The notes: generated by a model not told the origin, from the sequence alone. A stretch of 64,000 nt of DNA from Candidatus Latescibacterota bacterium (GCA_963667175.2 CAXXXF010000018.1:256001-320000); one strand, 5' to 3'. Numbered from the stretch's first letter, positions 498-22,304 are shown. Made by a program: numbers and translations.

Positions 498-914
498 TCA
501 ATCGAGCTGGTCGAGGAGTTGCTTGATCTGTTCATCTCCAGGCCAGGCCCCGGCGAGTTGAATCGGGTCGAACAGTTCCGCTTCCTTTCGGATAACAGAA
601 AGCAGGTCCTGAGAATCCTCTACGTCGATCGTTGGCATTTCTTCGAAGACGTCATCGCCTCTTTGACGAATTCTGATCCGGCGAGCTTCGATAAATCGTG
701 GTTTCCCATTATCCGTGAAGTGCGCAATACCCTCGACAGTCGTGTGTTTTCCCCACAAGGGCCCCAACGCCTCCGCATCCATTGACATCGGGTCTACACG
801 TCCGAACAGCGCTGCGCTCTGTCCCACCACAAGGCGAAAACGGCCATTGCCCTGTTCGTTCTCCTCAAGCCTACCACAAACGATAAACGCTCTTGGTTCT
901 GGGATGTCACTCAT
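498..914 (-). CDS. Hypothetical protein, probably the C-terminal half (OB-fold-like) of a family whose N-terminal half is at 14706-15029
   Basis: 138-aa ORF (IVCGRLEE...VEGIAHF...IEARRI) resembling the C-terminal part of 4710-5843-like proteins; RBS-like GGAG upstream. Confidence 0.5.
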   Translation of the reverse strand: MSDIPEPRAFIVCGRLEENEQGNGRFRLVVGQSAALFGRVDPMSMDAEALGPLWGKHTTVEGIAHFTDNGKPRFIEARRIRIRQRGDDVFEEMPTIDVEDSQDLLSVIRKEAELFDPIQLAGAWPGDEQIKQLLDQLD

Positions 915-957
915 CGGACTATCTCCGTGAAGACGTCATGTGAAGGTCAGTTGTTCC
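907..957. repeat. Repeat B copy 1 (downstream frame of defence unit)
   Basis: Ungapped match to 15215-15265, about 38/51 nt by manual count; core GTGAAGACGTCA..GAA.GTCA..TGTTCC. Confidence 0.75.
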
Positions 958-1036
958 AACAATTCTTATCCCGCCAGGGGCAGTGCGGCAGAAAGAACAG
1001 CGTTCCACTGTCCAACTATTTCCGATGAAATGGAGA

Positions 1037-4000
1037 TTATCCTATGACTTCCAAGAGTTCCGCTACGACCTGAAGCTCTCCCTCGTCCCTCTCCTTCAGC
1101 ACGATGGGTTGGAATTCTGGATTGTTGGGCCGGAGCGTAATGACGTCGTGCCGCCAGGATTCGCCGTATGGGATCTTCTCGCTGTGATAACGCTTGATGG
1201 TGTAGCGTTGGCCGGTTTCGGGATCGGGTGTGTCGCTCAGCTGAACCAGGACCGTCTTTCCCTGACGCGTTCCCTCGACGGGTGCACGAAATAAGCCATA
1301 CGCTCCGTCCGGGACCGCGGGTTCCATTGATCGCCCCACGATTTGCGCGACAAACATGCCCGGCCGTAGACGATAGCGAGAGTCCACGGATGCCCATTCG
1401 AATTCGCCGTCCTCGACGTGCTGCGGAGCGCCGAACGCGCCGGCGGCGGCTCTTAGCGGAACGAATGGTACACAGGTAACGTATCGTTCCTCGGGGCGGC
1501 CTTCGACCAGTCGCAGTGCGGCCGGGAATCCGTGATCTGTCACTGTTTCATCCGTTACGGCCGATTCGGTACGCAGCCGCTGATAGGCTTCGGTAGTCAT
1601 CCACTCGCGGACAGTGTGTTGGAACGAGTCGTCGTTCATATATCGCTGAAAGATCGCCTCGTTCTGATCCATGCGTTCGACGAAGATTTGATCCAACAGA
1701 CTTCTGAACACCAGTTCGAATTTGTCCTCGGGATTTACCGCTGCCGCCTGACGCATGCCATCGTCGGCAACTGCGGCCTCAACGATGTGATCGAAGAAGA
1801 GCTGGTCGGCTTGATTGAAGTCGGTCCCAAAGCGTTCGTTAACGACGTCGATCAGTTGGGAAAGCGGGACGGATTCTTCGTGTACTTCCCCGGCGCCGAC
1901 CTCTGTCGGGCCATCAAGGGCGTGCGCCTCGCCCTCCCCAAGCGAAATCGAGCCTTCGCTGATCTTCTGCAGCCGGTAGTACTCAAGCCGTACGTCATCG
2001 TCGAACTGATAGCCCGGCCCGCTACTGCGTTTCCGCAGCCTTCGCGTCAGATGTCTCAAGAACACGTGCAGGCGTTCCAGGTCCGAGTCCTGGTATGGTA
2101 TGATCTGGCTCAGAAAACCGTAGAGATTTCGGAATGCCTGAAATTGTCCGCGCAGGAGTTCCGCCGCGTCCTCGTCTTCTTCCAACCGTTTATTAAAGCG
2201 TCCAATTGCGGGATCAAGCGCGGCGTTCATCTCCTTGTGGTCTTGCACGGTCTGACGCTGCTTTGGCTTGAAATAAACGGCACAGAACAGTTCGACTTCA
2301 TCTTCCAGATAGATCCCTGACGCGTCAAGTTCGCCTTTGACCTCATACATTCGATGAGGATCTACTTCTTCTCCCATCTCCGAGCCTTCGTAGTAGACCT
2401 TAAACGCCTCCTGAATCTCCTCTCGATCGTTGACGAAGTCCAGGACGAATGTGTCCTCTTTGAGCGGATGGGTGCGATTGAGTCGCGAGAGCGTCTGAAC
2501 GGCATGAATGCCCGCGAGTCGTTTGTCAACGTACATCGTATGCAGTAACGGCTGATCGAAACCAGTTTGGTATTTCTCCGCCACCAGCAGTACCTGATAT
2601 TCCTGTGTGGCGAACTTTTCTGGGAGCTCCTTTTCACGGATGCCCTGGTTCATCTTTGCTTCCGTGTACTCGACGTCCGGTAGTTTGTCGTCTTGCACGG
2701 AACCCGAGAACGCGACAAGCGTCTTGATTGGATATTGCTTCTGCTCGATATAACGATCAAAGCTCTGCTTGTATCGCACCGCTTTGAGGCGCGAGTCTGT
2801 CACCACCATGGCCTTGGCCCGGCCGCCGATTTTGTGTCGCGTGACGGTCTGGAAATGCTCCACCATCACTTCGGTTTTCTGCGCGATGTTGTATGGATGC
2901 AGCTGCATAAAGCGAGCCAGCGCGCGCGCCGCCTGTTTCCGCTCCACGTTTGGATCGTCTTCGCGGGCCTTGAGGAGTTTGAAGTAGGTCGCGTAGGTCG
3001 TGTAATGCTCAAGCACGTCGAGGATGAATCCTTCCTCGATTGCCTGCCGCATCGTGTACTTGTGAAATTGCTCGCCGTCGCGGCCGAACACCGCAAGCGT
3101 CCTGTGTTTGGGCGTTGCCGTAAACGCAAAGAAACTCAGGTTCGCCTGCCTGCCGCGCCTGGCCATGCTGCGGAATAATTCTTCAAGATCCTCGCTCCCC
3201 GCTTCCTCAGCCTGTCTGCGTGCCTCCTCCCGCAGATCTTCTCCGCCCAGGACCTCCCTGAGATGGGTCGAGGTCTCTCCACCCTGCGAACTGTGCGCTT
3301 CGTCGACGATGACTGCACAGCGCCGCGAAGGAAGCGCGCCGGACCCCGATTCGCCTCTTTCGTCGGCCATCTTGAGCAGATGTTGTGAAACGAAAGGGAA
3401 TTTCTGAAGTGTGGTGATGATGATCGGGACCGCGTTCTCAAGGGCTTCAGCGAGTTGTCGAGACCGTTCGTCGATCTTCCGGACGACGCCATGCTTGTGT
3501 TCAAACTGGTAGATCGTGTCTTGTAGTTGCTGATCCAGGACGACGCGGTCAGTCACCACGATCACGCTATCGAAGACGCGCTCACTGTCTGTATCGTGCA
3601 GGGAAGCCAGGCGGTGCGCAAGCCAGCCGATGGTATTGCTCTTGCCGCTGCCCGCTGAGTGTTCGATGAGGTAGCTGTTCCCGACACCCTCGTCGCGAGC
3701 CGCTTTCACCAATTTCCGGACGGCATCGAGTTGGTGATAGCGCGGGAAAATCATCGACTCGACCTTAACCTTTCCGCCCATGTCGTCTCGTTTTTCCTCG
3801 GTCTGCAGATGGATATAGCGCGCGAGAACGTCGAGCAGGCTGTCGCGCTCTAACACTTCCTCCCAGAGGTATGCCGTCCGATAGTTCCGTCCGTTCGGAT
3901 CGGGTGGGTTGCCGGCCCCGTCGTCATTCCCTTTGTCGAACGGCAGGAAATGGGTCGCGTCGCCCGCCAATCGGGTGGTCATGCGGACACACTCGGTGTC

Positions 4001-4579
4001 CACCGCGAAATGTACGAGCGTCCGGCGTTTGAATTCGAAGATCGGCGCGCGGGGGTCTCGGTCACGTCGGTACTGACCGATCGCGTCCTCGACGGTCTGT
4101 CGCGTGAGCGGGTTCTTGAGTTCCACCGTAGCGACGGGGATGCCGTTCAGACAAACCGTCAGGTCGAGAGACTTCTCAGATCTGGGAGAATAATGAAGTT
4201 GGCGGGTGAGACCGAGCCGGTTGGCGGCGTAGCGGGCTTCGAGTTCCGGATTCAACTCATGAGCGGCCTTGAAGAATGCGGGATACAGCGTCCGTCCGTA
4301 GCACTTGAACCCGTGGCGCAACGTAGCGAGCGATCCGTTCGCGTCCATCCACTTGCACAGGTCATTGATAACCTGCTCACCGGTTCGATCGCCGTGAAGC
4401 GCCTCCAGCCTGGCCCATTCTTTGGATTGAGTGTCGCGGATGAACGCCAGCACCGCGTCCGGAAAGATCGCCCGGTCCCGGTCGAAACCTCCTGCGGCGA
4501 CGGTTACGTAGCCGTTCGCCAGAAGATGGGTTTCGATTACTGTTTCGAAGGCGGCTTCAGTGTGGCGGGAGTCGTTCAC
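1037..4579 (-). CDS. hsdR: Type I restriction endonuclease subunit R with C-terminal LexA/S24-like peptidase domain
   Basis: Nuclease motif VELKN, Walker [27 protein letters not shown]-terminus has RAAAG, VGRSMEP and YTIKRY (S24 Ser/Lys dyad). Confidence 0.95.
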
Positions 4580-4713
4580 GCGGGATTATCCATCCTACAG
4601 GCCCGATTTGACAGACAGACCACAAACACAAATGCGGCTGGAGGTGTACATGCAAAGTCGACTATCGTCAAAAAACAGTACAAGGCTGAGAGCGCACCCA
4701 CAGCAAATATCAT
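4576..4713 (-). CDS. Putative 45-aa hydrophobic small protein, translationally coupled at both ends
   Basis: [45 protein letters not shown]; ATGA overlap with the upstream stop and GTGA overlap with the hsdR start. Confidence 0.45.
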
Positions 4714-5843
4714 ACAGGTTCATGTCGGTTTAGATAGAGAATCCGTCTTTCCCGTCCCCCGATAGCGACTTCCTCTATTTCCTCATCGCAATAGAATCTG
4801 TAACGCTCGCCGACCGTCAAACCATCTAAACTTGGCCCCCCTTCCATAACCTTGCCCAGACGTTTTCCTTCGTTCGTGAGCAATCCCCAATACCCGCTTC
4901 CACGGTCAAATCTCTCGAAGGTTCCCTCCAGCGTTACTGATTCGCTTCCCAGATTCGTCACACTCGAAAGCGCTTTCACTAAAAGGCCTGCCTCGGACTG
5001 AGAAACCGCGCGGCTGATTGGGCGGTCTGATTTCGGTTCGGCCCACGAGTAGCGCAGCCCCGTTTTTCGTTCAACCAGAAAACGCAAGAGCTTCAGGTAT
5101 GTCCCTGCCAGGCGCCCACGTTGTTCCTTGACGGTGAGAAGTGTTTTCTGTGGGGTCGCGGTATCCTCAAATAGCATATCGATTCGCCGTAGCGCTCTCG
5201 CAAGTTTACTGCCTCCGAAGAAATCCGGCATGCTCGCTGCTTCAAGGACAATCTGAAACGATCCGGCTGCCGCTGGAACAACGACGTCCATCATGTCTTC
5301 ATCGGGCTGCCGATAGCGAGGATCGTCTCCCTTCATCTCCGCTCTGTAAGCGTGTTTGACCATTCCCTGAACCAGATTCAACATCCCTGCGAGCGTATTC
5401 GCTCGGATACGATGTTGCATCGACGCCTCTGGCGGCTCAGCGGCGACCTCAAGTACGAGGTTGTTGCGTTCCCGGGCTTCCCTGAGCACAGAATCGTCTG
5501 AAGGGTGGTCGTGTAACACAAAACCGGCATCTGGAAGAAATCCACTATCCATGAGGGTAGTAGACAGACTATAAAGCTCCAGTGGATGATTCAGGTCGGT
5601 ATCCACTGTCGCCAGATACCGCTCCTCATCGTCCGAATGGATCAGCAACGAACGCAGATCGAGTGCACCTGAACGGAATTTCCGCAATCGCTCGGGAGCG
5701 ACACCGGCTACGAGAAAACGTCCGTTCTTATCTTCGGCGTCGACACCGACTGCGATATAGCACCCGCCGATGGCGTCGCGCGCCTCGAAAATCTGCGGCC
5801 CGTCGTAATAGAAAAGCGTCCTCGTGTGTCGGATCTCTTTCAT
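4710..5843 (-). CDS. DUF6575-like protein (RM cargo)
   Basis: N-terminal LFYYDGPQIFEARD motif typical of DUF6575-type proteins; ATG at 5843 overlaps the upstream stop (ATGA). Confidence 0.7.
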   Translation of the reverse strand: MKEIRHTRTLFYYDGPQIFEARDAIGGCYIAVGVDAEDKNGRFLVAGVAPERLRKFRSGALDLRSLLIHSDDEERYLATVDTDLNHPLELYSLSTTLMDSGFLPDAGFVLHDHPSDDSVLREARERNNLVLEVAAEPPEASMQHRIRANTLAGMLNLVQGMVKHAYRAEMKGDDPRYRQPDEDMMDVVVPAAAGSFQIVLEAASMPDFFGGSKLARALRRIDMLFEDTATPQKTLLTVKEQRGRLAGTYLKLLRFLVERKTGLRYSWAEPKSDRPISRAVSQSEAGLLVKALSSVTNLGSESVTLEGTFERFDRGSGYWGLLTNEGKRLGKVMEGGPSLDGLTVGERYRFYCDEEIEEVAIGGRERRILYLNRHEPV

Positions 5844-6217
5844 GGAGTTTCCACGACACAGTGCGCCAAAATGTCGAAATCTGCCAGCGGCCACCAGGTG
5901 TGATGTGAGCGCTGACCTGTCTGTTGAATGGCGCCCGCGCCATTTTCGAGTATTACTCGGCAGATTAAACGTCCGCGTAGGCTCGGGATCTTCAATGCCT
6001 TTTGGGAATCGCCTCGTTCAGCAAAAACAGAGAGTCCCCTGGCCTGGCACTCGGAGATCTTACCGAAGTCTCGGTCCGGTTTTTCAGCTCGCTGGGATGC
6101 GAAGTCCTCCTCCGCCGGTGGGGCGGTCCGCACCAATCGAAATACCACTCGCGTTGCTATAATGGCTTCTGCCGCATCAGGTGGGCACCCTTCAGGCAAC
6201 GGCTCTCGGTAATTCAT
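5840..6217 (-). CDS. Small protein with ART/RES-like motifs (candidate toxin/effector)
   Basis: Motif order VFRL...GLSVF...SHHTWW resembles the ADP-ribosyltransferase-fold R-S-H core; coupled to the downstream gene. Confidence 0.6.
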   Translation of the reverse strand: MNYREPLPEGCPPDAAEAIIATRVVFRLVRTAPPAEEDFASQRAEKPDRDFGKISECQARGLSVFAERGDSQKALKIPSLRGRLICRVILENGAGAIQQTGQRSHHTWWPLADFDILAHCVVETP

Positions 6218-6257
6218 AGGCTGGCAGAGATGACTTGGCCTGGGCGTTCAAGACAAT

Positions 6258-6350
6258 GGCGCCCTGGATGTCGATCTATCCGGTCACCGAGGCAGTTATG
6301 AGCGCGCAGTGCTGTACATTGATCAGTGCAATGGTATTGTTCGCGATGGC
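6258..6350 (-). pseudogene. Degenerate hsdS 3' end remnant
   Basis: Alternate frame reads NTIALINVQHCALITASVTG*IDI versus intact HsdS NAISLIKERRSALISAAITGRLDI (12/24 identical); contains an in-frame stop. Confidence 0.7.
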
Positions 6351-6360
6351 TCAGCGAGGG

Positions 6361-6633
6361 CGAGCCGTTCGCGTCCATCCAGAGGCAAGGGTTCGAGAAA
6401 ATCTGCCATCCCGTTCGATCGCCGTGAAGCGCCTCCAACTTGGCCCAGTCTTTGGGTTGCGTATCACGAATGAACGCCAGCACCGCGTCAGGAAAGATCG
6501 CGCGTTCCCGATCGAAGCCATCTCCGGCGACCGAGACGTAACCATTCACCAGAAGATGCGCCTCAATGGCGGTTTCGAAGGCGGCTTCGGAATGTCTGTC
6601 TTCTCTCGGAAAGTTATCTGTCTCTCCGTGCAA
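6361..6633 (-). pseudogene. Truncated duplicate of the hsdR 5' end
   Basis: HSEAAFETAIEAHLLVNGYVSV...WMDANGS is near-identical to the HsdR N-terminus; 6361-6590 is colinear with 4331-4560. Confidence 0.9.
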
Positions 6634-7324
6634 ATCGCTTGCGCTGACGGTGTTTCGTGAGGGCGTCCATATGCTCTGTCAGACCGCCTCGTATTGCAAC
6701 GCAAAACTCGTTGAAGCTACCATTCCCTTTACGGTCGCAAATCGTGTCGCGCACACGTTGCGCTTTGGTATAAGACAAGGGTGCATTCCCCGTCGGTCCG
6801 TAGATGAATTCCTCAATAACGCGCTTTCGGTCTTCGGTAAGACTCCTGTGATCGAGACCAAGGACGTTAATGGTCGTTACGGCTTCGTTTCGATTGTTAA
6901 CTGCCTCAATCTCACCATTAAGCTCGAATCGAAAGACCTGTTCGCAGGCAGGCTGAAGTGGAGAAACGAATTCGGCGCCATCGTTATCCCACCAATTGTT
7001 CTTAAGTTGCGCGCCATAGCGACATTTTGCCTTCATACCTTCTCGTGGGAAACACGCTACCAGATTGGTGTAGTCCAGGTCAGATCCAGGCAGTTCCGCC
7101 CGGCAGCGACTCTGTGGCTTGATATGCTCGACATGCGATGAACTGCTGTCGATTCGACGCATCGTATAGGCACACAACCCGCCCTGGTCTGCAACCATAG
7201 TCTTCAATATCTGATCCTTCAGAGTCGAAGGCGCCTCGCGCCAATCAGATTTATTCGTTCCCTCAACTTCAGTGCACCACACGGAGTAGGAGTGCGGGCA
7301 CCCGGATTTCTGGACGTGCTTCAT
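6614..7324 (-). CDS. HNH endonuclease (TIGR02646/PtuB-like)
   Basis: QGGLCAY...HVEHIKPQ...YTNLVAC motifs; coupled to the upstream ATPase. Confidence 0.85.
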   Translation of the reverse strand: MKHVQKSGCPHSYSVWCTEVEGTNKSDWREAPSTLKDQILKTMVADQGGLCAYTMRRIDSSSSHVEHIKPQSRCRAELPGSDLDYTNLVACFPREGMKAKCRYGAQLKNNWWDNDGAEFVSPLQPACEQVFRFELNGEIEAVNNRNEAVTTINVLGLDHRSLTEDRKRVIEEFIYGPTGNAPLSYTKAQRVRDTICDRKGNGSFNEFCVAIRGGLTEHMDALTKHRQRKRFARRDR

Positions 7325-8640
7325 TCGCCCAGAATCTCCAGTCGAGTGATACGCGCTTCAAGAACGGACCACTCCGGCAGGTCAAGCCCGTTCTCTTTGG
7401 CCTCTGAGATCGCGGTGTGCGCTTTCTCGAAGGTTCCTTGCGCAATCAAGTTTTCAACTGATTGAATGGCAGCCATCGCCTCCTTCGGTCGGTCATCGGC
7501 CTCCATGAGGTGGCGCAGTATCCAGTTTGAGTCCATGCCAAGGCTGCGGTCCGGATGGACAATTTCACCAGGTGCCAAGGGGTGAACCTGATCGGGCTCG
7601 ACGGACGCCACGACCTGCGGCGAGTGAGTCGTCGCGATGAACTGGCAGTTTGGAAACGTCGCGGTCAGGTTATGGACGATTTGCCTCTGCCATTTGGGGT
7701 GAAGATGCAACTCCAATTCGTCAATCAGGACGACCGCATGACCTTCACTCAGGGGATCATCTAGTGATGGATTCGCCTGGGATAATCGTCGAGCGATGTC
7801 AAGGACCAAGGCCAACAACCCACGCTCACCATCCGATAATTTCCGTACATCAAGAGTAGTTCCATCGTGGTCGACTAAGAGGCGAGGTGTTTCTTCGTCA
7901 GTTGGTCGAAGATTCTCATAGGTCGGCAGGAATCTTTCAACCGTCGATCGTAGCACCTCTATGTTTCGCTTTACCGCGGAATTCTCCACAGCAAGAATCG
8001 CCTGTGCACGCATCCAATGGGCAAAGTGTGATACATACATCGGTCGGGATACAAGGGCACCGGCGTAAGCCACTGCCATACCACCAGTTGCCATAGACTC
8101 GGTTGGACGGCGAGAAGAGAACACGGAGCGATCGGTAGAGAAGAACACGCCGTTGGGAGCCACCCGAGAGGTGTAGGCGGCGGCAGCGAAATCAGCTTCA
8201 GACGGCAGGAGGAAATCGGAATCATAAACTCCGTGAGATTCATCAAGCTCACGCAACGGCTTTACCGCCCGGTCGCGTAATCGCTCAGACTCCAAAATCT
8301 TCCTTTGGAGATTCTTTAAATTCTCTTCACTGTCAGCCGCGATCGGCTCCCTCCATTGACGCCGCGTAAAATGGAAATCTTCCTCGTTTATCGTCAGTGA
8401 CAGTTCGGCATCCAGGAACGGGAAGTCGCTTCTTATGTCTTCAATCTCAAAGGAAATCGGCTTCGCGCGAGGTTTCGGCCAACTTCTGAGTATTCTAGAT
8501 TGACAAATGCGCAACGCGTCCAAAACAGTGGTTTTCCCAACGCCGTTAACGCCGACGATCAGGTTGAATCCCGGCTGAAATAGAAATTCAGCATTTTCAA
8601 TTGCACGCAGGTTGGTTATTTTGAGACGCGTGAGAATCAT
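7321..8640 (-). CDS. ABC/AAA_21-type ATPase (PtuA/Septu-like)
   Basis: GVNGVGKT Walker A, LSDGE signature, VLIDELELHLHPKWQ, TTHSP. ATG at 8640 overlaps the hsdS stop. Confidence 0.9.
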   Translation of the reverse strand: MILTRLKITNLRAIENAEFLFQPGFNLIVGVNGVGKTTVLDALRICQSRILRSWPKPRAKPISFEIEDIRSDFPFLDAELSLTINEEDFHFTRRQWREPIAADSEENLKNLQRKILESERLRDRAVKPLRELDESHGVYDSDFLLPSEADFAAAAYTSRVAPNGVFFSTDRSVFSSRRPTESMATGGMAVAYAGALVSRPMYVSHFAHWMRAQAILAVENSAVKRNIEVLRSTVERFLPTYENLRPTDEETPRLLVDHDGTTLDVRKLSDGERGLLALVLDIARRLSQANPSLDDPLSEGHAVVLIDELELHLHPKWQRQIVHNLTATFPNCQFIATTHSPQVVASVEPDQVHPLAPGEIVHPDRSLGMDSNWILRHLMEADDRPKEAMAAIQSVENLIAQGTFEKAHTAISEAKENGLDLPEWSVLEARITRLEILGE

Positions 8641-11815: not shown

Positions 11816-11880
11816 GGGTAAAATCGACTATAGATTTGGTTGCGATTTTCGTTTTGGTTTAACGATGTTCACAAGAGGCC

Positions 11881-11965
11881 GCCGCCAGGACGGCTTCGCG
11901 CGAGACCGACGGATAGCTCAATCTAATCTAATCGGGATCCAGACCGGAAGCCAGATTGTCCAGAA
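11881..11965. repeat. Repeat A copy 1 (promoter-like, upstream of hsdM)
   Basis: Ungapped match to 22050-22134, about 70/85 nt by manual count; minus strand has TGGCTT-17-TAGATT. Confidence 0.85.
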
Positions 11966-12050
11966 CCTCAGTCCCTACGTGCCAATATAGGGTGAGACAA
12001 CTTCCCCTTCGAGATTAATGTCGTATCATGGGCGGAGAGGAGAACAAGAG

Positions 12051-13528: not shown

Positions 13529-13619
13529 ACCCCAACGGGAGGTGTCTCATTTCTATTGACACGTTCCGAGTCACCAGGACTCGCGTACCGGCGATGCACG
13601 CGATGTTTTCAAAAAACGC

Positions 13620-13650
13620 TTGACAAGGTATACACAAATAATGATCATTA
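13620..13650 (+). promoter_or_regulatory. -35 TTGACA with adjacent perfect palindrome TAATGATCATTA (putative operator)
   Basis: TTGACA at 13620-13625; 12-bp palindrome at 13639-13650; AAGGAG RBS before the GTG at 13689. Confidence 0.5.
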
Positions 13651-13688
13651 ATTATGAATAATAATGATATATAACCAAGGAGACTTTC

Positions 13689-14249
13689 GTGCTCAAAACG
13701 ATTGAAATTCCAACTTTTAGTCAAACGTGGATAAATTCCACCACACCTTTAATACGAAAAAAAAATGACGTACAACAACAAATGAATGAATTATTGGAAG
13801 AACCTGTTAGAGAAATAATACGAAACTTTCATGATTTAAATGACTCTTTAAAGCAAGGAATAAAAAAGGAGTTTGAATTTTATCAACGTCTTAAGACTTT
13901 TGATGATAACACAATCCAACAATTAAATGTAGATAAGCGGGAATTTGCCAGGTTAGATAATGTTTATGTTAATTTAAAAAATAGACAATCCCAATATAAA
14001 GAATTTAAGAATAATGTGATTGATACTATTGCTGAATTACAGTCTATCATAAAGGCAACACCAGCTCTATGGAAAGAATCAACACAATTAAACAAGGTAA
14101 AACGTAATATTAATCGAAATCTAAATCACATAATAGCCTTATCACAAGAATCAAGTTGGATCTTATCCATAATTATCGATACTCAATGCTCAGAGCGTAG
14201 TGACGTATATGACTCCGCCCATAAGGCACTAGAAGCCTTGTGGGAGTAA
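13689..14249 (+). CDS. Low-GC coiled-coil protein, putative antitoxin
   Basis: Good RBS, AT-rich, directly upstream of a RelE-like gene; C-terminal YDSAHKALEAL resembles antitoxin tails. Confidence 0.6.
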   Translation: MLKTIEIPTFSQTWINSTTPLIRKKNDVQQQMNELLEEPVREIIRNFHDLNDSLKQGIKKEFEFYQRLKTFDDNTIQQLNVDKREFARLDNVYVNLKNRQSQYKEFKNNVIDTIAELQSIIKATPALWKESTQLNKVKRNINRNLNHIIALSQESSWILSIIIDTQCSERSDVYDSAHKALEALWE

Positions 14250-14254
14250 CACAG

Positions 14255-14548
14255 ATGCTGCATAAACCTCTGGAGTCATTAAATCAAATTGCCTTTAGTC
14301 CTCGGGTGAAAAAACAACTACGCAAGTTACGCAGTCATATTGAAGGAACATTCGATAAAGCCTTATACGAACTACAGACAGGAGAACTATCTAACGGTCG
14401 TGAATTTAAGAAAGATCAATTCTTCTATACGATTCGATTAAATGATAATTATCGAATTGCTTTTACTATCGAAAAAGAAATACTACATATAAGATGCGTC
14501 GGCCCACATTCAACTATTGATCGCTATAGAAAAATTGGTGAATTATAG
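14255..14548 (+). CDS. RelE/ParE/HigB-like toxin
   Basis: About 98 aa; IAFSPRVKKQLRKL...YTIRLNDNYRIAF...VGPH pattern of RelE-superfamily mRNA interferases. Confidence 0.75.
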   Translation: MLHKPLESLNQIAFSPRVKKQLRKLRSHIEGTFDKALYELQTGELSNGREFKKDQFFYTIRLNDNYRIAFTIEKEILHIRCVGPHSTIDRYRKIGEL

Positions 14549-14705
14549 ACCATAATTAAATAAACCCCCCCAGAACCCCCGCCACAGATCCGCCTCCTCC
14601 CGCCAATAAAACTGATAACCCGCCTCTGGCAGATACTGTTCCGCCATTCCTCACTGTATCGGTGGTGAGTATCATACGCTTGACCTGCACCGCCTAACTT
14701 AATAT

Positions 14706-15029
14706 TTACTTGTGAAATTGACCACTAGGTTGTTTTCTCCATAGATCGTCCTGGGCGAATTGCTCGTGGGCGGTATCGCCGAGTCTCGGCGCCTCAAGCT
14801 GAATAACTGTCGAACCTGATTCCAGTCCAGTAATTGTAAAGTCGATCGAAGCGCCCAACCACGGTGGCCTCGCTCCCTTCCCCACGCCAACACCAGTGGC
14901 TATCAGGCGGGTGGCTCGCTCTGCGGTCGTGAGGAGGGCAGCCGTCACCCGGCGAAGGGTCGTCATTCTGATCTGCCCTTCGCCTTCTCTAAGACCACTG
15001 ATGCGGAGTTGATAGCGTTCTGTCTTCAT
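14706..15029 (-). pseudogene. Truncated N-terminal half of a hypothetical protein
   Basis: MKTERYQLRISGL...TGLESGSTVIQLEAP ends abruptly where the AT-rich insert begins; the GS-hydrophobic motif recalls AAAGSFQIVLEA in 4710-5843. Confidence 0.55.
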
Positions 15030-15214
15030 GGCGGTGTTCACCTTTGTTGTGTGCCGTTCTATAGCTCAGGTTCGGCAGCTTTGTAGTTTCGCGCTTTGTA
15101 TTCGCCCAAGAGTCTCGATACAAGCTGCGATGTGTTCAAAAAACGATCCCGTAGCTGACCTTTTCCCAGATCCGGTCCAACCAGGAGTCGGTCAGATCCG
15201 GCTGTACCGCCAGA

Positions 15215-15265
15215 TCAGTCATCGGGCATAATTTGTGAAGACGTCACGAGAACGTCAAATGTTCC
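15215..15265. repeat. Repeat B copy 2
   Basis: Matches 907-957; lies just downstream of the giant-ATPase operon. Confidence 0.75.
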
Positions 15266-15349
15266 GGCTTACGTCTTTCCGGGCATTCATTTCAGCAAGG
15301 ATAGGCGTTCTCAATTGTCGAAATATATAAGCCGAAAAAGACTACCCAT

Positions 15350-16648
15350 CTACAACCTTGTATTTAGGCCAGCCCTGATCGCCTTCTCTAACGCCGCGCA
15401 AAACCTTTCGTAATCCCGTAGGGATATCGGCCGATAGTGTGCCACTGCATTGCGGAGCTGGCGCGAATGGTGTACAAGTGGAAGCCATCGCTGTTCTACC
15501 TGTATATTAGGACATTTCTGCAGCAGATATTCCAAGTGTCCCCACTGACAGGCAAACGGCGTCTCTCTTACTTCCTGGCATTCTGTTTCTGTATCCGGCT
15601 CCTGCCATTTGTAAGGCCAATTCAATCCGTACGACCGGTTCAGATGAGTACATAGCACCAATCTAATCTCGTCAATCTCAGCCAGTAGGAATCCCGCTTG
15701 ACCTCGCCACAATCGATGATCCAATGTTTCCTTTTGATCCAATAGAGCTAAGACTGCGCTATGGCGTTCCAGCCCATATTCCGGAGTCCAATGGACCATT
15801 CCCCGAGCCCAAATCTTATACATTGAATTTGGTAATGCCCAATCCTCTTGCCAAAGTGTGGGATTTCGAGAATGGCTATGTAAAGGCCAATCCTCCAATT
15901 CCGTCCGATCCCATCCACGTTGCTGACCATAAGCCCGCAGTAGGTGCGCTAATTCCGCTCTATCGCTATACACTTGAGACCAAAGATAATCTGCCAAATC
16001 TATATCAGAGCCCGCAATGGCCGGAATCGTGTGCTCTTTCCATCGGCTTAAGGGACCGGTATCCTGATCGGATGCCAGGCGACACAGGAGTCGCATCTCC
16101 AATGTCGTGGGGATGCCTCTCCAAGGACGGATAGAAAGGAATACATTAGTTTCGGGAAGTGGGTAATGTACTTGAGACGCATGGGCTATCAAACAAAACG
16201 CCGGGAAGATTTCGACTCCATCTTCGTCGGTGGAGTGCATTCCTTGACAAACCTGCGCCCACTGCACCACAAAGCGAAGCCACTTTACTCGATCTTCTTC
16301 TTCCAGTTGATCAAACCCATCGAGAAACAGGATTTCCGGCAAGTCTGCTCGTTTCAGTAGATTCTCAACTGTCCTCGGCGTGGAGGATGCACCCCAATCT
16401 ACTCCGAGAGCCTGGCCCAAAGCTGCAGCCGGCGTTTGGACGTCTAACTGTGATATGAGGATCTGGTCAATCTGTAAGTGCCAGTGGTCGAGTCCTTCCC
16501 TCAAGGCCAACCGCAACATACTTGGATCGATACCATCGGGAAACAGAACCAAAACACTTCGGGCATGCCGTAAGTCGTCCTGTATCAGTTCCAACAAATG
16601 CCGGACGGTCGGCAGTTGCATCATGTAGGTGGTCAGTTCCAAGCTCAT
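15350..16648 (-). CDS. Hypothetical protein, possibly an inactive STAND-like domain (partner of giant ATPase)
   Basis: 432 aa, ATGA-type overlap with the upstream gene; Walker-B-like ILFLDGFD with no Walker A; C-terminal RNAVAH (HEPN-like RxxxxH). Confidence 0.7.
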   Translation of the reverse strand: MSLELTTYMMQLPTVRHLLELIQDDLRHARSVLVLFPDGIDPSMLRLALREGLDHWHLQIDQILISQLDVQTPAAALGQALGVDWGASSTPRTVENLLKRADLPEILFLDGFDQLEEEDRVKWLRFVVQWAQVCQGMHSTDEDGVEIFPAFCLIAHASQVHYPLPETNVFLSIRPWRGIPTTLEMRLLCRLASDQDTGPLSRWKEHTIPAIAGSDIDLADYLWSQVYSDRAELAHLLRAYGQQRGWDRTELEDWPLHSHSRNPTLWQEDWALPNSMYKIWARGMVHWTPEYGLERHSAVLALLDQKETLDHRLWRGQAGFLLAEIDEIRLVLCTHLNRSYGLNWPYKWQEPDTETECQEVRETPFACQWGHLEYLLQKCPNIQVEQRWLPLVHHSRQLRNAVAHYRPISLRDYERFCAALEKAIRAGLNTRL

Positions 16649-19600
16649 AGAGGGCTAACTATTCGACCTATGACGGACTCAACGCGGTACTCTCCATCCC
16701 TTTTTTCGAGGCATCCCATCCGGGTCAAGAACTCCACAGCCAACTTGCAGTCCTCTAACGTGAGAGGAGGAGTTCCTTCCACCAGATCTCCCAAAGTCTC
16801 CAAATCCTCTTCTGAGACTTTGTCACATTCGACTAAAGTCCGTACTACTCGGCGAGACTCCGCCCGGGAATCCAAACCGACCTGCTGCAACAGCTTAGAG
16901 CCCAACTTGGATCCCGGACTGGCAACCTCCTCGATCAGACTTTTCGCATGAGATCGGGGGTCGTCATGGTCGCCGCACCGGCGCAAAAGGTCATCCAGCA
17001 AGAATGGCCACCCCCCGGTGGCCTCCAGCACCTTCCGGCAAATCTCGGGCGAATCCAGCTTATCGGCCTGGCTCAATCGCTGTTGAATTCCGACTTCGTT
17101 CCACCGACGCAGGTAAATGGAGTCAGTCCCATCCTCGAGGCCGGTACGCTGATCCGCAGGTAATCTCAGCCAGGTCCAGGCAGCCTCCGGTTTGAGGACA
17201 AAAACGACCCGTAGGGGCCGCCTACCCCTTTGGTTAAAATCCCCGCACATCAGCGATACTTTCCAGACGTATCGGGCCATATCGCCTCCTGTGCCCCTGA
17301 GCCGACCATAAGTCAATAACTGCTCGAACCCTCGTTGCTTTTTGGCGTGGGCGTCCAACCATGCACAGGTTCGATTGGCCTGGCTCAATTCTTGAGCAGG
17401 AATCTCACTGCCACCCATACGGTCTAAAGCCTGGTCCAACGCGTCCAGTCCCAATGCCTGGGAGCCAAAGACTAGACTCACGCCGGATGCCCCGGATTGT
17501 TGGATGCGGCCTTCTTCTACTAACGTCAACGGACTGTATCTGAGGCCCTGGTCACCCAATAGTACGTGCTGACTATCGGGCTGAAACTGGGTGGGCTGAG
17601 ATTTTTCCGATAGCTCCAACAGACGACTTTCTATATCCTCCTCGGTACCCATCATGCGGACGAGATTGGGACTGCGTAGCATGTATTGATTCTCATCCTG
17701 GTTGTGTACCAATATGCCCAGACCGACCATTTCTCCTAATAGTCCTCTCAAGGCTTCGGTGTGGACGTCATCGAAACCTTGAGGCCACCACTCTCGCGCC
17801 CGTTGGAGAAGCTCGTTCACGCTGAATGAACGGACATAGCTGTCTCGCGTCTCTTTTTGCTCATAGATCATGGACCACGCGATACACTGATATCGTGGAT
17901 CCAATTGCAGAGTCCAATCGAGCCGTTCCCGAATGACCTTTCGAGCTTGAGGCAAGCGATACACGGCCTCGACATCCTCCGAGCGCACTTTGTAAGGCGG
18001 TCCGGTAATGGACCTCTTGGCTTGCAGGCGGCGCACGAGTTCATGGCAGAAATACTGTATCAAACCGGGATGGTAGTTGGTGTAGGACAAAACTTTGAGC
18101 ACTGTGGTCTCATCAACGAACCGGTAACCCAGCGTCTCCAGAGGTTCCCGCACCAGGTCCCGGGCGGAACTGGCTTCGAGAGGTCCCACCAGTAAATTCT
18201 CGCCGAAGTGCGCCAAAGGCTGGTTGGGGATATCATTAAACCTTTGGACGTTGTGCAGTCCGGCAAAGACCACCTTGAAGCGAGATTGAGTATCCTGCAT
18301 TAGGGATCTCAGTCTTTCGACGACTTGGAAGCTGTTTTGAGCATCGGCACCCAGGAAGGAATCGGCTTCATCAAGCAGGACGAGAACACGCCGCTGCGGA
18401 GCCACATCCATTGCGTTTTGGATGTGGCTTATGATTCTGTCAGGTTGAGACGCCGCTATCCGCTCTCCGATTAGTGAGTGTTTCTTAAAGCCATCACGCA
18501 ATTTTATCCACAGTAGATCGGGCTGTTCGCCTGCCAGGGCATCACCCACCAGCTTGATGTCTTGGACCCAGGCATACCGCTCGTGATCTGGCTCGTGAAA
18601 CGTACGCTCTACCTGGCGCAATAGTGCGGACTTGCCCAACTGTCGCCCACCGAATACGATGCAGTTACCCTCGTTTTGTAGCTGACGCACCATTTTGTCG
18701 CGACCATAGTACATTTCAGGCGGTACGTTTCCTGCCTGGAACGGCGTATAGGGATTCAAAGCAGCGTAGGGCAAACTACAACGCAGGAAAGCTGGAAGGC
18801 GGGTATCGTCAAGCCTGGCCAGGAATGCCAGTAGGACCTCATCGAGCACCACGAGAGCCAATTCTCGTTGCCCGGCACGCGTGGCTATGTCTCCTCGTCG
18901 CCGTTCAGTCAATCGTCCGAGGAAAAAAACGATGACAGTCTTGGTATCCAGTCCTATTTCACGCAAAAAAGCTCCGATAGAGGCGGCACCAGGGCGTTCC
19001 CACAGACATACCACATCGTAGCGGCCATTGGCTTGCGAGCCCAGTTGAGGGATCGGCCGCGCGAGGTCGCTGGCCGATGCATCTACTTCGCAGTGGAGCC
19101 AATCCCGGCCTCGATTCTTCACTTTGACAGCCGATTCTCTTTCCGGTAGATGAAAACCAAGATATGCCAACAAGTTTGGTACATGCCGATGAGCAACTGT
19201 TGGCTGGTCCTGATGTCGCTTAAGCATGTGCCAGGATCGAAAGGCCCTGACGACTTCATCTCGGCGGGTTTTTGGTAACTCACCGAACGCCACCTTTTCC
19301 CAAGTTTTGCCTTTTTCAACCTCACGGGCCAATTGATTGACATTCCCCAAGCTTGCAAGCCCCGATTCAATACCTGGACTTGCATTCTTGAACTCACTTA
19401 AGTAGTCGCGTTCGGAAGGTGGGGCTAACCAGGCACTATCCCATTCAACCTCACCCTGGAGGACTTCGCGCAGGTGGGCTAAGCCTTCTTCGACGACTCT
19501 GGTATCGCCCTGTTTAAAGGATTTCTGAATAAACGCCTTCAAGGCTTTCATTTGGTCGACTTCGATCTTTTGCAATAGGCCTTGCCGCATTTCCTTCCAT

Positions 19601-21942
19601 TGACTTTTCAACTCTTGCAATCGGTCTGCGCGTTTCTGGTTCAATTGGTGCTCAATATCGTCCAGTCGTCGGAACAGAGGCTCGAAGCACATGGGCTCTT
19701 CAATCTCCGCTGTTTCCAATTCAGCGCTGAGACCGGTACGTTCTTCTTCAACCAGTAGCCCGTCGACCATTCCCTGTTCGATTGCGCCCCGTACGCTGGC
19801 GACCTTATCCGCAAGAGCCGCTCGGGCACCCTTGAGCGCCTCGTCGTTTCGATCCTCGAACTCTTGACGTTCGTCATCGTCATTCAACGCATTCCGCAAT
19901 ATATCGGCGAATCGAAAATCCTGCCCTTCAATGTGCATGGTACAGGCTGCATTAAGTGCGCGTTCCTCGGCCAGGGACTGCCGCAAGAACGTGGCAATAT
20001 CTGCCTCTTGATCCTCTCCAAGAAAGCCGTGGTCGTCCAGGGAAACTTCAGGGAGCCACAACAGGCGTCTCGTTAACGCCTGTTTCAGTGAGCCGCTTTC
20101 GCGCTGCATCCATGCTTGAGGATCTTCATTATCGGCTTGCCCCTCTAAACCCAACAATCGGGTTACTTGGCCTATAGCCAGGTGCAAAACGCGGGCACAT
20201 GCGGCTTCTTGTTCGGCTTGTTCCTGCTGTTGCATGCGATCGAGTTCGGATGTGACATCTGGCAAGATTGCTTGTATTTGGTCACGCAATTCCCTTACAA
20301 GATCGGTCCACCAGTCGCCGTTGGTGTTGATCACCTCACTCTTCTTAATCAAGGAACACCAGTGGTCGGCCAACGTCACAGCGTCTTCTATGCTGCGTAC
20401 CAATTGGTCTCGCGGAACTCCGGTGATCGGTCTGGAGGGACGCCCTGGCGTTAACTCACGGTCAATCTGGTGAATGCGGTCCTCAATCTTGCGGCCTTTG
20501 AGTTCTCTTACTCGCTGTCGGATCTTTTCGATTTCGTCGGTATGGTTATTACTCACCGGATACAATAGTTGCCCCAAATCTCCGTCTCGGTTCACCAATC
20601 GTCGGAGGACGTTTGTCGCCCTTACCATTTTTAGTCTACGGACCTTATTGTTCTCCAATAGGCTACCCGCTCTCGTAGCTGTCTCTTCAATGCCGTCTGA
20701 TAAATCTGCCTGATGTTCTACGCCAAGTAAATCGTCCCGCTGCAAAGGATAACCTGCGCGGGTAAACGCACGAATTGCATCAGCCAGCCTGCCGAAAGGG
20801 GAATCAACCTCATCTCTTTGTGGAAGCCAACTGGTCAATCCGGTGTACGGGGCAATTAAGGCGGGACGAATTGCCGCAGCCAATCCTAAAACTCGCTCGG
20901 CGTTATTTTTAGGTGCCAGATCCGTTGTAATGTCTTTGATAGCGTGGACCAAACTGTCAGCATCGTCTTCCAACCAACGCGAGCCTTGAAGCACGGCAAG
21001 CAATTCAGGCGCGACGGGTACGTTTCGGCCTCTTGCTTTCAACGAAAGAGCAAGCCAATAGGCGCCTGCCCAATCCTCTTCAGCCAACAGGCTCCAGCCC
21101 AGCGATTCCCAGTTCTCATCGGAGTCGTCCTCTTGCAATTGCATCGCCGCGTCGCGAACCGAACGCAACTTTGCCGACCTTTTTACGGGGTGCTGGAGTG
21201 TTGAAGGGGCGGGCTCGCTCTGCTTCGGTTCGGACTCGTCTGGCTTGTCTGAAAGTTCGCCTTCGGCATCTTGCTGGTTGGAACTGGTTTCCTCTTTAGA
21301 TTCGTCTGCGGGGGGACGAGCGTCTTTCTTGGCCGGTTGCTCCTCATCAGAACCAGGGTGTTCATCAGACGGACCTTTTCCGGGTTCAGGGGGATCCGTG
21401 TCGGGTTCATCGTCGTCTTGGGTGTCCTCTTCCGGGGTCTGTTGTGGCTCCGGTTCGGCTTCTGCAAACTCCTGTTCGAGTTGTTTTGCGAGTAAGTTTA
21501 TTCGATCTTCCGTGTCGTTCAAGTCCGTCCGATGCTTGCGGGTCTCCTGGAAGTTTTCAGGCGTTTCCTGCTTTAACATACGAAGCCCATTTAGCTGCTC
21601 CAGCAGATTTACGGCTATTTTCGCACGCCTTGGAACCTGATCAGCAGGGCAACTGGCCGCTTGCCAATTGGCTATGCCGAGGCTTTCGAATCCAAAAAAC
21701 GCTATCTCACCGGCGTAGTCGTCTCGCAATTGGTCCAATGTCTGTTGGAGATGGAGCCGCCCCGCTTTCTTCTGTTCGTCGCACTTGTGCTCGGCGAGGA
21801 GCCGTACCTTTTCGACGAATCCTTCGACCTGGTCTGTTTCCCATTCCGAAGCATCCGAAGGCCACTCGCGCAGTTCCTCAATAACGCTGGCCCATCGCGT
21901 ATCGTTCAGGCTCTCGCCATTCTGTTTCTTGACATCGCTCAT
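16645..21942 (-). CDS. Giant (~1765 aa) STAND/AAA-type NTPase with long helical N-terminus
   Basis: NPY..G..MYYGR, Walker A GGRQLGKS, Walker B VLLDEAD, YTNYHPGLIQ (GxP-like). Second degenerate module near the C-terminus (ATGGWPFLL). GAGG RBS. Confidence 0.85.
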   Translation of the reverse strand: MSDVKKQNGESLNDTRWASVIEELREWPSDASEWETDQVEGFVEKVRLLAEHKCDEQKKAGRLHLQQTLDQLRDDYAGEIAFFGFESLGIANWQAASCPADQVPRRAKIAVNLLEQLNGLRMLKQETPENFQETRKHRTDLNDTEDRINLLAKQLEQEFAEAEPEPQQTPEEDTQDDDEPDTDPPEPGKGPSDEHPGSDEEQPAKKDARPPADESKEETSSNQQDAEGELSDKPDESEPKQSEPAPSTLQHPVKRSAKLRSVRDAAMQLQEDDSDENWESLGWSLLAEEDWAGAYWLALSLKARGRNVPVAPELLAVLQGSRWLEDDADSLVHAIKDITTDLAPKNNAERVLGLAAAIRPALIAPYTGLTSWLPQRDEVDSPFGRLADAIRAFTRAGYPLQRDDLLGVEHQADLSDGIEETATRAGSLLENNKVRRLKMVRATNVLRRLVNRDGDLGQLLYPVSNNHTDEIEKIRQRVRELKGRKIEDRIHQIDRELTPGRPSRPITGVPRDQLVRSIEDAVTLADHWCSLIKKSEVINTNGDWWTDLVRELRDQIQAILPDVTSELDRMQQQEQAEQEAACARVLHLAIGQVTRLLGLEGQADNEDPQAWMQRESGSLKQALTRRLLWLPEVSLDDHGFLGEDQEADIATFLRQSLAEERALNAACTMHIEGQDFRFADILRNALNDDDERQEFEDRNDEALKGARAALADKVASVRGAIEQGMVDGLLVEEERTGLSAELETAEIEEPMCFEPLFRRLDDIEHQLNQKRADRLQELKSQWKEMRQGLLQKIEVDQMKALKAFIQKSFKQGDTRVVEEGLAHLREVLQGEVEWDSAWLAPPSERDYLSEFKNASPGIESGLASLGNVNQLAREVEKGKTWEKVAFGELPKTRRDEVVRAFRSWHMLKRHQDQPTVAHRHVPNLLAYLGFHLPERESAVKVKNRGRDWLHCEVDASASDLARPIPQLGSQANGRYDVVCLWERPGAASIGAFLREIGLDTKTVIVFFLGRLTERRRGDIATRAGQRELALVVLDEVLLAFLARLDDTRLPAFLRCSLPYAALNPYTPFQAGNVPPEMYYGRDKMVRQLQNEGNCIVFGGRQLGKSALLRQVERTFHEPDHERYAWVQDIKLVGDALAGEQPDLLWIKLRDGFKKHSLIGERIAASQPDRIISHIQNAMDVAPQRRVLVLLDEADSFLGADAQNSFQVVERLRSLMQDTQSRFKVVFAGLHNVQRFNDIPNQPLAHFGENLLVGPLEASSARDLVREPLETLGYRFVDETTVLKVLSYTNYHPGLIQYFCHELVRRLQAKRSITGPPYKVRSEDVEAVYRLPQARKVIRERLDWTLQLDPRYQCIAWSMIYEQKETRDSYVRSFSVNELLQRAREWWPQGFDDVHTEALRGLLGEMVGLGILVHNQDENQYMLRSPNLVRMMGTEEDIESRLLELSEKSQPTQFQPDSQHVLLGDQGLRYSPLTLVEEGRIQQSGASGVSLVFGSQALGLDALDQALDRMGGSEIPAQELSQANRTCAWLDAHAKKQRGFEQLLTYGRLRGTGGDMARYVWKVSLMCGDFNQRGRRPLRVVFVLKPEAAWTWLRLPADQRTGLEDGTDSIYLRRWNEVGIQQRLSQADKLDSPEICRKVLEATGGWPFLLDDLLRRCGDHDDPRSHAKSLIEEVASPGSKLGSKLLQQVGLDSRAESRRVVRTLVECDKVSEEDLETLGDLVEGTPPLTLEDCKLAVEFLTRMGCLEKRDGEYRVESVIGRIVSPL

Positions 21943-22049
21943 ATACAATCCTCAATATAGGATTCGTCTAGATTCCTGTATCATTTCGCGGTCTCATCTA
22001 CCCCGGAGTGACGACACCCTCATCCGCCAACGCTGCGGCATAGCAAATC

Positions 22050-22134
22050 GCCGCCTGGTCGGATTCGCGTGAGACCGATGGATAGCTTTTCGTAATCTCG
22101 TCGGGGTCCAGACCGGAAGCAAGATTGTCAAGAA
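22050..22134. repeat. Repeat A copy 2 (promoter-like, upstream of giant ATPase)
   Basis: Matches 11881-11965; minus strand contains TTGACA and TTGCTT-17-GAGATT. Confidence 0.85.
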
Positions 22135-22304
22135 TCGTGGTCACCAGAACAGGATGGCCGGAGTGGGAATTTGCGGTCTATGTGAGTCGATTTACTGCCG
22201 TTTCTCGTTCTCTCGTGCTTTTCTCTCGCTCCAGGCTTCTTCCTGCACCAAGTTATGATCCTGCTCCTGTTTTCTGTTCCTGATAAGCCTGGTTGGTTTT
22301 GGTT

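Follow-up and report, generated by a model that had tools for sequence, protein, structure and literature searches.

Why would a bacterial defence island carry two quite different operons inside the same pair of flanking sequences? The question is raised by a stretch of 64,000 nucleotides (nt) from Candidatus Latescibacterota bacterium (GCA_963667175.2 CAXXXF010000018.1:256001-320000). This whole stretch is called the window here, and all coordinates refer to it. The genome that carries it, G000, is a 5.52-Mb draft in 18 contigs. A reading made from the sequence alone (the sequence-only reading) had described two units, each consisting of a repeat A, a cargo, a repeat B and a fragment of a gene. 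The cargo of one is a type I restriction-modification (R-M) operon with other defence genes embedded in it, and that of the other is a STAND-like ATPase gene with a partner. The layout, A-[STAND pair]-B-X' followed by A-[type I R-M]-B-X'', is as that reading gave it, with every part on the minus strand, but the proposal that it represents a fixed chassis for exchangeable cargo requires a different explanation. We consider it likely, though by no means certain, that two different versions of one chromosomal hotspot have been joined end to end and that the shared frames are relics of the genes that border it. The stacking of two alleles would by itself have duplicated the frame sequences. Such stacking is an ordinary route of island growth; there is no sign of a dedicated cassette mechanism, and the locus does not amount to a novel cassette system.

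The region downstream of the gene for a Lar_N-like protein was fetched and mapped in 14 other genomes of the genus (15 with G000). Four of the fetched regions are cut by contig ends, and all four nonetheless reach the helicase gene on the other side. Wider samples comprised 101 related genomes for the core of repeat B, 132 genomes of the class for the STAND pair and for the layout expected of a donor, and 100 relatives for the spacer next to the second copy of B. Logan contigs of four independent sequencing runs, X1, X2 and X8 among them, were compared with the window; none of these runs contained as much as half of the words sampled (best 0.33). Domains were assigned with Pfam in a scan of 25 open reading frames (ORFs), defence models were taken from PADLOC and further profiles from NCBIfam. 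Domain and defence-model assignments for the loci of relatives come from Pfam and PADLOC scans.

The frame sequences

The two copies of repeat A (11880-11965 and 22049-22134) are identical at 71 of 86 positions (83%) without gaps. The ungapped score is 48.5, far above that of direct repeats in random 23-kb sequences, the best of which scored 17.5. A BLAST search of the whole genome finds these two copies only (E 1.1e-18 for the second), all other matches being 14-41 nt long with E >= 0.07. The sequence-only reading was right that the repeat is shared upstream of hsdM and of the giant ATPase gene, but what kind of sequence is it? Judged by its translation, repeat A comes from a DUF433 gene that has decayed, and what is left is the 3' part. 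The minus strand of both copies encodes the C-terminal two-thirds of the DUF433 domain (PF04255), with 34.4 bits for the second copy, A2, and 25.1 bits for the first, A1, against a cut-off of 23.6; an in-frame TAG in A1 was read as X. Neither copy holds an intact ORF over the whole domain: of 56 profile positions, 19-56 are matched in A2 and 23-53 in A1, and the sequence upstream of the relic is foreign in both. Set against relatives, A2 extends to 22019-22150 (minus strand) and retains its own stop codon. A1 (11880-11967, minus strand) is split by a 1602-bp element of the IS3 family of insertion sequences (IS), beyond which it continues at 13570-13605 (minus strand, DUF433 codons about 16-27; far part at 13571-13605) with a piece that is contiguous with A in the related genome G009.

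The two copies differ in their ends. The start of A2, near codon 21, adjoins the core-side spacer at a deletion junction, where comparison with G012 indicates that a deletion of about 330 nt took the upstream spacer and the start of the gene. A1 runs from near codon 16, where it borders a ParE-like module, to near codon 60, at a deletion junction about 65 nt before hsdM. The limits of the copies were therefore set by separate rearrangements, and A is a gene relic rather than a defined element. A1 lies 65 nt upstream of hsdM and A2 about 70 nt upstream of the gene for a 1767-residue ATPase, and the stretch from A to the start codon in one unit is unrelated to that in the other. There is no evidence for A as a promoter, the role that had been assigned to it; a scan of the A and B regions for sigma-70-like promoters gave 0, in what is a weak test restricted to the sigma-70 type. 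Intact DUF433 orthologues of 68-79 residues occupy the same place in G004, G005, G011 and G012, and in G005 and G012 they are followed by an intact gene for a DUF5615 (PIN-like) protein. We take the DUF433-DUF5615 pair to be a toxin-antitoxin module, an assumption to which a Pfam PIN_10 match may be added; a literature search for the two domains together found nothing. Repeat A is present at the hotspot in 9 of the 15 genus genomes. A1 is 92% identical to the copy of G009 and A2, over the 86-nt core, 95% identical to the intact gene of G012, compared with the 83% between them. Each copy is nearer that of another genome than to its neighbour in the window, which points to alleles from diverged lineages and not to a recent copy made within the genome. 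G007 shares the junction between A2 and the STAND pair.

Repeat B (B1, 907-957, and B2, 15215-15265, both minus strand) is shorter, with 38 of 51 positions identical (75%), and it likewise has two copies only in the whole genome (31-nt core, E 0.017), so that neither A nor B is a dispersed repeat. The homology is confined to about 51 nt, from GGAAC through ATGAnTGA. With 18.5, the ungapped score of B is above that of the best direct repeat in each of 30 first-order Markov random sequences of 23 kb (mean 15.2, standard deviation 1.1, maximum 17.5, n=30), and B therefore stands above chance, modestly. As had been noted, it lies downstream of both operons. B1 is found between the stop codon of hsdR (1037) and the ORF 498-914, and it is a leader that ends in the ATG of that ORF. 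B2 lies 85 nt downstream of the gene for a 432-residue protein (15350-16648) and 186 nt upstream of the start of the other gene fragment; its own ATG opens an ORF of 28 codons only.

The two gene fragments had been described as an N-half and a C-half, and this holds: both derive from one gene, here called X, which in relatives such as G013, G011 and G004 is a single ORF of about 313 residues. XN (14706-15029, minus strand) corresponds to residues 1-102 and ends in five foreign codons, and XC (498-914, minus strand) is a stand-alone C-part of 138 residues that matches residues 176-313. The short XC form is also present in G009 (92% amino acid identity) and G007 (72%), and the arrangement hsdR-B1-XC is common to G000, G009 and G007, with B1 86% identical to that of G009 at the nucleotide level. 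XN is 86% identical to the X of G013, XC only 71%. Some piece of X is found at the hotspot in 10 of the 15 genus genomes, and G007 has a second partial X.

Among the 101 related genomes the 20-nt core of B occurs in G000 (twice), G009 and G007 only, and a search allowing two mismatches gave two further matches compared with 10 for a control pattern. Downstream of the STAND pair, neither the 9 loci taken from other genera nor the 7 wider loci have B. No match to B1 was found in the full-length X loci of G011, G013 and G004 (word size 7, E <= 1e-3), the 320-nt spacer that holds B2 (15030-15349) has only chance-level matches of 25-32 nt in the 100 relatives, and the best blastx match of this spacer to X, XC or the hsdR tail has E 0.36. 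A terminator scan of the A and B regions gave one terminator-like site, at 14634-14618, outside B. The idea of B as a general exit sequence does not agree with this distribution. Our own reading, drawn from one example, is that B may be a short leader that once stood upstream of X in one lineage.

A variable hotspot between two conserved genes

The first 24,514 nt of the window are a horizontally acquired anti-phage island at a hotspot between two anchor genes. The left anchor encodes the Lar_N-like protein (23180-24514, minus strand; Pfam Lar_N 38.3 bits), which has an orthologue (88-97% amino acid identity) in 15 of 15 genus genomes. The right anchor, just outside the window start, encodes a DEAD/UvrD helicase of about 1760 residues (cluster c0) that is present in 14 of the 15 and missing in G002. 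The right-hand resident module before the helicase gene is a vapBC pair. Its vapB-like antitoxin gene continues beyond the start of the window (1-204, minus strand; VapB_antitoxin 30.4 bits), the next gene outside is a PIN-domain vapC (30.9 bits), and vapBC clusters (c3 and c23) adjoin the helicase in most genus genomes. The segment from the Lar_N-like gene to the helicase gene measures about 2 kb in G012, about 17.5 kb in G009 and about 24 kb in G000, although the Lar_N-like proteins of these three genomes are 96-97% identical. The GC content of the island is 0.41-0.60 as against 0.62-0.65 in the core. No tRNA gene was found in a scan of 1-30000. As the sequence-only reading had stated, there is no local integrase: the Pfam scan contains no integrase and no tyrosine or serine recombinase, and its sole recombinase-type match is the transposase of the IS3 element. 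No boundary site common to both units is present. That reading had also found no known system name to fit the locus. Conserved anchors, variable and defence-dominated content that includes near-empty sites, and a border with neither integrase nor tRNA gene are, however, the features of a chromosomal defence-island hotspot, and this name does fit.

What do the relatives hold in this place? G012 has only DUF433-DUF5615-vapBC, in about 2 kb, and G005 has the same genes plus genes of the RDD family. In G013 and G004 DUF433 is followed directly by full-length X, and in G014 an internally deleted DUF433 is followed by a HEC-01A-like ATPase. G011 carries DUF433, a DUF5615 stub, a PDC-S60-like gene, a frameshifted hsdM, hsdS, Septu and an hsdR fragment, and then a DUF4365/TPR gene, a PD-T4-10-like pair (with an IS), hsdR and full-length X; its R-M system thus stands next to full X without B. 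G009 has the ParE module, A, a gene for a UvrD-like protein of 932 residues, the R-M complex and B1-XC. In G007, A is followed by the STAND pair, directly by hsdM, and then by hsdS, genes for a 5-methylcytosine (m5C) methylase, a HEF_HK protein and a Response_reg_2 protein, an hsdR fragment, the PD-T4-10-like pair, hsdR and B1-XC. G002 is similar to G007 but lacks A and X and has PDC-S68. In both of these genomes the STAND pair runs straight into hsdM with neither A nor B between. G001, G003, G008 and G010 have an X 3' stub only, beside the core gene, and G006 has none of these genes. hsdM is present at the hotspot in 5 of the 15 genomes. The defence content recognised by PADLOC comprises type I R-M, Septu, a weak PD-T4-10-like system, PDC-S60, PDC-S68, a HEC-01A-like system and an m5C methyltransferase. 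The cargo thus varies and is not always the same, and the description of whole systems as swapped or stacked suits a locus whose relatives hold nothing, the R-M complex, or the STAND pair and the R-M complex between the flanks.

A probable joining of two alleles

The first unit of G000, from the ParE module through A1 and the R-M genes to B1, XC and vapB, matches G009 at 90-96% nucleotide identity. Compared with G009, G000 has 14689-22168 (XN, B2, the STAND pair and A2) in place of about 300 nt of core-side spacer. The G009-like layout without the second unit is also seen in contigs of the independent run X2, where 14688 is joined to 22169; as in G009, the IS3 element is lacking there at the A1 site (joint 11967->13570). 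At 14691-14724 a filler of about 33 nt lies between the ParE module and the truncated XN. The match to G009 begins at 14691 and that to full-length X breaks off at codon 102, and there is no repeat at this non-homologous junction. Stacking would also call for a homologous crossover on the core side. Contigs of run X1 that are 100% identical to the window cover XN and the spacer that precedes it (14747-15111, not reaching B2), and also the junction between A2 and the STAND pair.

From the identities of A, B-XC and X, the anchors, the differing content of the relatives and the positions of the junctions, all of which are observed, we infer an order of events, a donor and a recombination mechanism as follows. 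The ancestral slot of the genus would have had DUF433-DUF5615 on the left and X with vapBC on the right, and defence operons would have come and gone between them by insertion, exchange and deletion. At a microhomology in the R-M allele, a deletion may have fused B to about codon 176 of X, with B supplying the start codon of XC. This allele would have been like that of G009, reading ParE module, A1, hsdMS, Septu, hsdR fragment, PD-T4-10-like pair, hsdR, B1, XC and vapBC. The STAND allele would have read core, A2, STAND pair, B2 and X. Most probably, DNA from a related strain with the STAND allele would then have entered a G009-like chromosome, recombining homologously on the side of the core gene and being joined illegitimately inside X at codon 102, a case of homology-facilitated illegitimate recombination. 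With homologous exchange on one side and an illegitimate join in X on the other, the resident allele would have been pushed downstream and not replaced. The deletion of about 330 nt that clipped A2, the deletion between A1 and hsdM and the insertion of IS3 into A1 would be later events. Passages of PMC5361080 propose one-sided homology with illegitimate joining for orphan immunity-gene arrays of type VI secretion systems (T6SS) in Vibrio and for Rhs loci, and the existence of such a process is stated also in the abstract of PMC3240628. Scars of this kind are found again within the island, as three hsdR 5' pieces and, in G007, as the second partial X.

Several observations weigh against the stacking of two alleles. 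No independent contig spans 14691-14724, the identical contig of run X1 ending at 14747. The layout expected of the donor, STAND pair-B-full X, is absent in the 132 genomes of the class and in the 9 and 7 loci of other genera. Since B upstream of a full-length X is known only from this window, the deletion origin of B1-XC has one example behind it, and the 6-nt microhomology at that deletion was read by eye only. A single insertion into one X would also suit XN and XC, which are complementary and collinear and do not overlap. In 7 loci of other genera the STAND pair has no DUF433, X or hsd neighbours. In two other genera that carry the same R-M family, X lies between hsdS and hsdR, beside an Abi_C gene, and a DUF433 or DUF5615 remnant lies downstream of hsdR. 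DUF433/DUF5615 and X thus travel with the R-M genes, and the flanks may be passengers of the island and not chromosomal anchors. The 'empty' sites, finally, may be products of deletion.

Other explanations

Could A and B be the functional ends, promoter and exit, of a fixed chassis that is loaded with cassettes by dedicated recombination? A common frame does exist in the form of the DUF433 and B-X relics, the order A-cargo-B-X fragment is common to both units, neither A nor B is dispersed, and the cargo from DUF433 to X varies among relatives. What falls away is the purpose-built part. A is a relic of coding sequence whose ends differ between the copies and is followed by unrelated sequences before the two start codons, the B core is limited to 3 of 101 genomes and is not beside the STAND pair anywhere else, and relatives carry the same modules without these ends, G011 having its R-M genes next to full X without B and G007 and G002 their STAND pair-hsdM junction without B or A. 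There is also no recombinase in the Pfam scan and, by a weak test, no sigma-70-like promoter in A or B. The Logan contigs of the four runs contain none that joins B to A, but such contigs drop rare forms. We regard a fixed chassis as extremely improbable. A broader idea is that a type I R-M scaffold of modular build moves between genera and that its homology arms, still at work, are the relic of DUF433, the leader B, gene X and the 5' ends of hsdR that have been duplicated. Short conserved gene ends would time and again capture and exchange whole defence modules, each in a fixed slot, and X, which is an OB-fold protein and in some cases is fused to DUF6575, would be a functional partner. The same hsdM/S/R backbone does occur with X and with DUF433 or DUF5615 in two other genera, and we hold this to be a long shot.

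Another history would have one gene and one insertion, with a block of about 13.8 kb (ParE module, A1, R-M complex, B1) entering the X of a locus that read core-A2-STAND pair-B2-X(full) and codons 103-175 being lost. The collinearity, common orientation and lack of overlap of XN (1-102) and XC (176-313) speak for it. However, the hsdR-B1-XC junction is common to G009 and G007, both of which lack XN, so that the short form either predates the split or is independent of it, and it is mainly for this reason that we judge a single insertion unlikely. Against it also stand the block ParE-A-R-M of G009 and of run X2, which is joined there to a core-side spacer absent from G000, and the unequal identity of XN (86%) and XC (71%) to the X of G013. 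The direct order and same orientation of the two frames would equally suit a tandem duplication of an A-cargo-B-X unit within the genome, followed by replacement of one cargo. A1 and A2 are, however, nearer the copies of other genomes (92% and 95%) than each other (83%), B1 and B2 are only 75% identical, and no homology is left between the two cargoes; such a duplication is very doubtful. An assembly chimera of two strain variants of the hotspot must be considered for a draft of 18 contigs with 4.75% contamination, in which the joint at 14691-14724 lies outside the cover of independent contigs and dispersed repeats are nearby. That joint, however, is not at a repeat, the joins that are bounded by repeats (IS3 and an element of about 800 bp) agree with the synteny of G009 and G012, and the identical X1 contigs cover 14747-15111 and the A2/STAND junction, which makes a chimera hardly credible. 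The stacking of two alleles remains the reading that we prefer.

Genes of the island and its surroundings

The R-M unit has all three type I genes by Pfam and PADLOC. hsdM (9830-11815, minus strand) has the domains N6_Mtase and HsdM_N (PADLOC MTase_I, E 1.3e-255), hsdS (8637-9833, minus strand) has Methylase_S (Specificity_I, E 3.6e-93), and hsdR (1037-4579, minus strand; REase_I) has SWI2_SNF2, HSDR_N, T1R_D3 and Peptidase_S24. An NCBIfam model of an hsdR subfamily scores 199.5, under its cut-off of 284.55. The Peptidase_S24-like (LexA/UmuD-type) domain is at the C-terminus of HsdR (residues about 1043-1173, window 1037-1560; 27.2 bits, cut-off 23.3), and the HsdR length of about 1180 residues is maintained in relatives of three genera.

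Two further defence modules are embedded between hsdS and hsdR. Septu (6614-8841, minus strand) consists of neighbouring genes for the HNH nuclease PtuB (6614-7324, E 8.1e-55) and the ATPase PtuA (7321 to about 8643, E 4.7e-112) and lies between hsdS and a duplicated N-terminal hsdR fragment. This fragment is a 139-residue ORF (6214-6633, minus strand) in which 229 nt are 80% identical to 4330-4558 (77% over 79 residues in translation). The PD-T4-10 A/B-like pair (4710-6217, minus strand) is a weak assignment (PADLOC E 4.7e-5 and 8e-5), and its B-like protein carries DUF6575 (39.5 bits). The hsdR fragment precedes this pair in all five genus genomes that bear the R-M system. Between hsdS and the fragment, G000, G009 and G011 have Septu, and G007 and G002 (L056:1867-7565) have the m5C methylase, a HEF_HK/HATPase protein and the Response_reg_2 protein, so the contents of this one slot within the R-M operon differ between genomes. 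The hsdR 5' pieces in the window are at 4330-4558, 6360-6588 and 241-309. The last is a scar (minus strand), 70-72% identical to 4479-4547 and 6509-6577, and a scar of about 70 nt of this kind lies upstream of vapB in 10 genus genomes, some of them without R-M genes.

The STAND-like module (15350-21948, minus strand) has a gene for the 1767-residue P-loop protein of the AAA_16/AAA_22 kind (16645-21948) and an overlapping gene for the 432-residue partner (15350-16648). The larger protein matches AAA_22 with 32.7 bits and AAA_16 with 22.3 bits, the latter below the cut-off. Neither protein has a PADLOC or NCBIfam match, curated models of known STAND/Avs-type systems included, or a match among PDB sequences, and for residues 1-1050 of the larger one the Atlas gave no usable match. 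The model of the partner (predicted local distance difference test score, pLDDT, 89.8) has weak similarity to AAA+ proteins of the ORC/Cdc6/RuvB/Apaf-1 type (best E 2.5e-6, template modelling score about 0.3), and no lysine, such as that of a Walker A motif, is among its invariant columns. As a pair the two genes are conserved in 13 of the 132 genomes of the class and are at the hotspot in 3 of the 15 genus genomes; they are candidates for a new defence system.

Databases contain 317 relatives of X, none of them named and none with a Pfam family, and X itself has no match in Pfam, NCBIfam, PADLOC or PDB sequences. Its AF2 model (pLDDT 81.8) suggests an OB-fold-like barrel in the C-part, with weak Foldseek matches to OB-folds (best E 2.4e-3). 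Two relatives carry a fused DUF6575 domain that resembles the one in the window protein at 4710-5894; a BLASTP comparison of X with this protein was not significant. In other genera X adjoins a gene with an Abi_C domain (G069, L051:4907-8315; G097, L048:8173-10022), and in G069 its start overlaps the stop of hsdS within the R-M operon.

The ParE/RelE-like module (13606-14690, plus strand) comprises a gene for 186 residues (13689-14249) and a toxin gene (14240-14548) whose ParE_toxin score of 22.6 bits is slightly under the cut-off of 23.0. Its GC content is 0.41. It is 94% identical to the module of G009, which lies there between the DUF433 relic and the core side, and its outer end, at about 14690, abuts different sequence in G000, in G009 and run X2, and in run X8, behaving as if the module were mobile. 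The IS3-family element (11968-13569, plus strand; HTH_Tnp_1, rve and rve_3) has about 14 full-length copies in the genome with 94-99% identity, which suggests that it is probably active. Outside the island frame, 22266-23144 holds a copy of a dispersed repeat of about 770-800 bp with an ORF of 292 residues. At least 15 near-full copies (91-100%) are found in the genome, and none is present at this place in G009. The contig depth of this sequence is very high in three other runs.

Comparison with known systems

If two alleles were indeed stacked, the window would provide an example, at the level of single junctions, of a defence island growing in this way without an integrase, and it would illustrate that relics of bordering genes can mimic purpose-built cassette ends. 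It also draws attention to three uncharacterised gene sets linked to defence, namely the STAND-like pair of 1767 and 432 residues, the X family, and HsdR with an S24 peptidase-like tail.

How does the locus compare with islands and arrays that have been described before? Integron cassette arrays are similar in having serial modules in one orientation with short shared boundary sequences. In contrast to integrons, the window has no integrase or other adjacent site-specific recombinase and no attC-like site conserved at each boundary; its units are multi-gene units with spacers of their own, and their boundaries are broken genes. Type I R-M operons with embedded defence genes are known, for example prrC inside EcoprrI as described in a passage of PMC12707154, and here Septu and the PD-T4-10-like pair lie within hsdMS...hsdR. 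Unlike the EcoprrI type, one slot is marked here by a duplicated hsdR 5' end, and X and an Abi_C protein are embedded in other genera.

The T6SS immunity arrays of V. cholerae and displaced Rhs 3' ends, for which passages of PMC5361080 describe entry by one-sided homology, a resident pushed downstream and repeated pieces of the flank, are close in anatomy. The duplicated A, the split or duplicated X, the three hsdR 5' pieces and the filler junction all have this appearance. In the window, however, each unit is an entire defence operon of 7-11 kb and not an effector-immunity pair, and the mechanism is suggested by anatomy only. The other close parallel is the enterobacterial immigration control region (E. 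coli hotspot #36, yjiA-yjiN), for which passages of PMC12707154 describe a slot bounded by anchors, variable content rich in type I R-M and other defence systems, empty sites in relatives and no mobilising integrase at the border. By analogy, the island is the same kind of locus. It differs in belonging to another phylum, in its anchors and cargo, and in holding what appear to be two stacked alleles with duplicated relics of the bordering genes.

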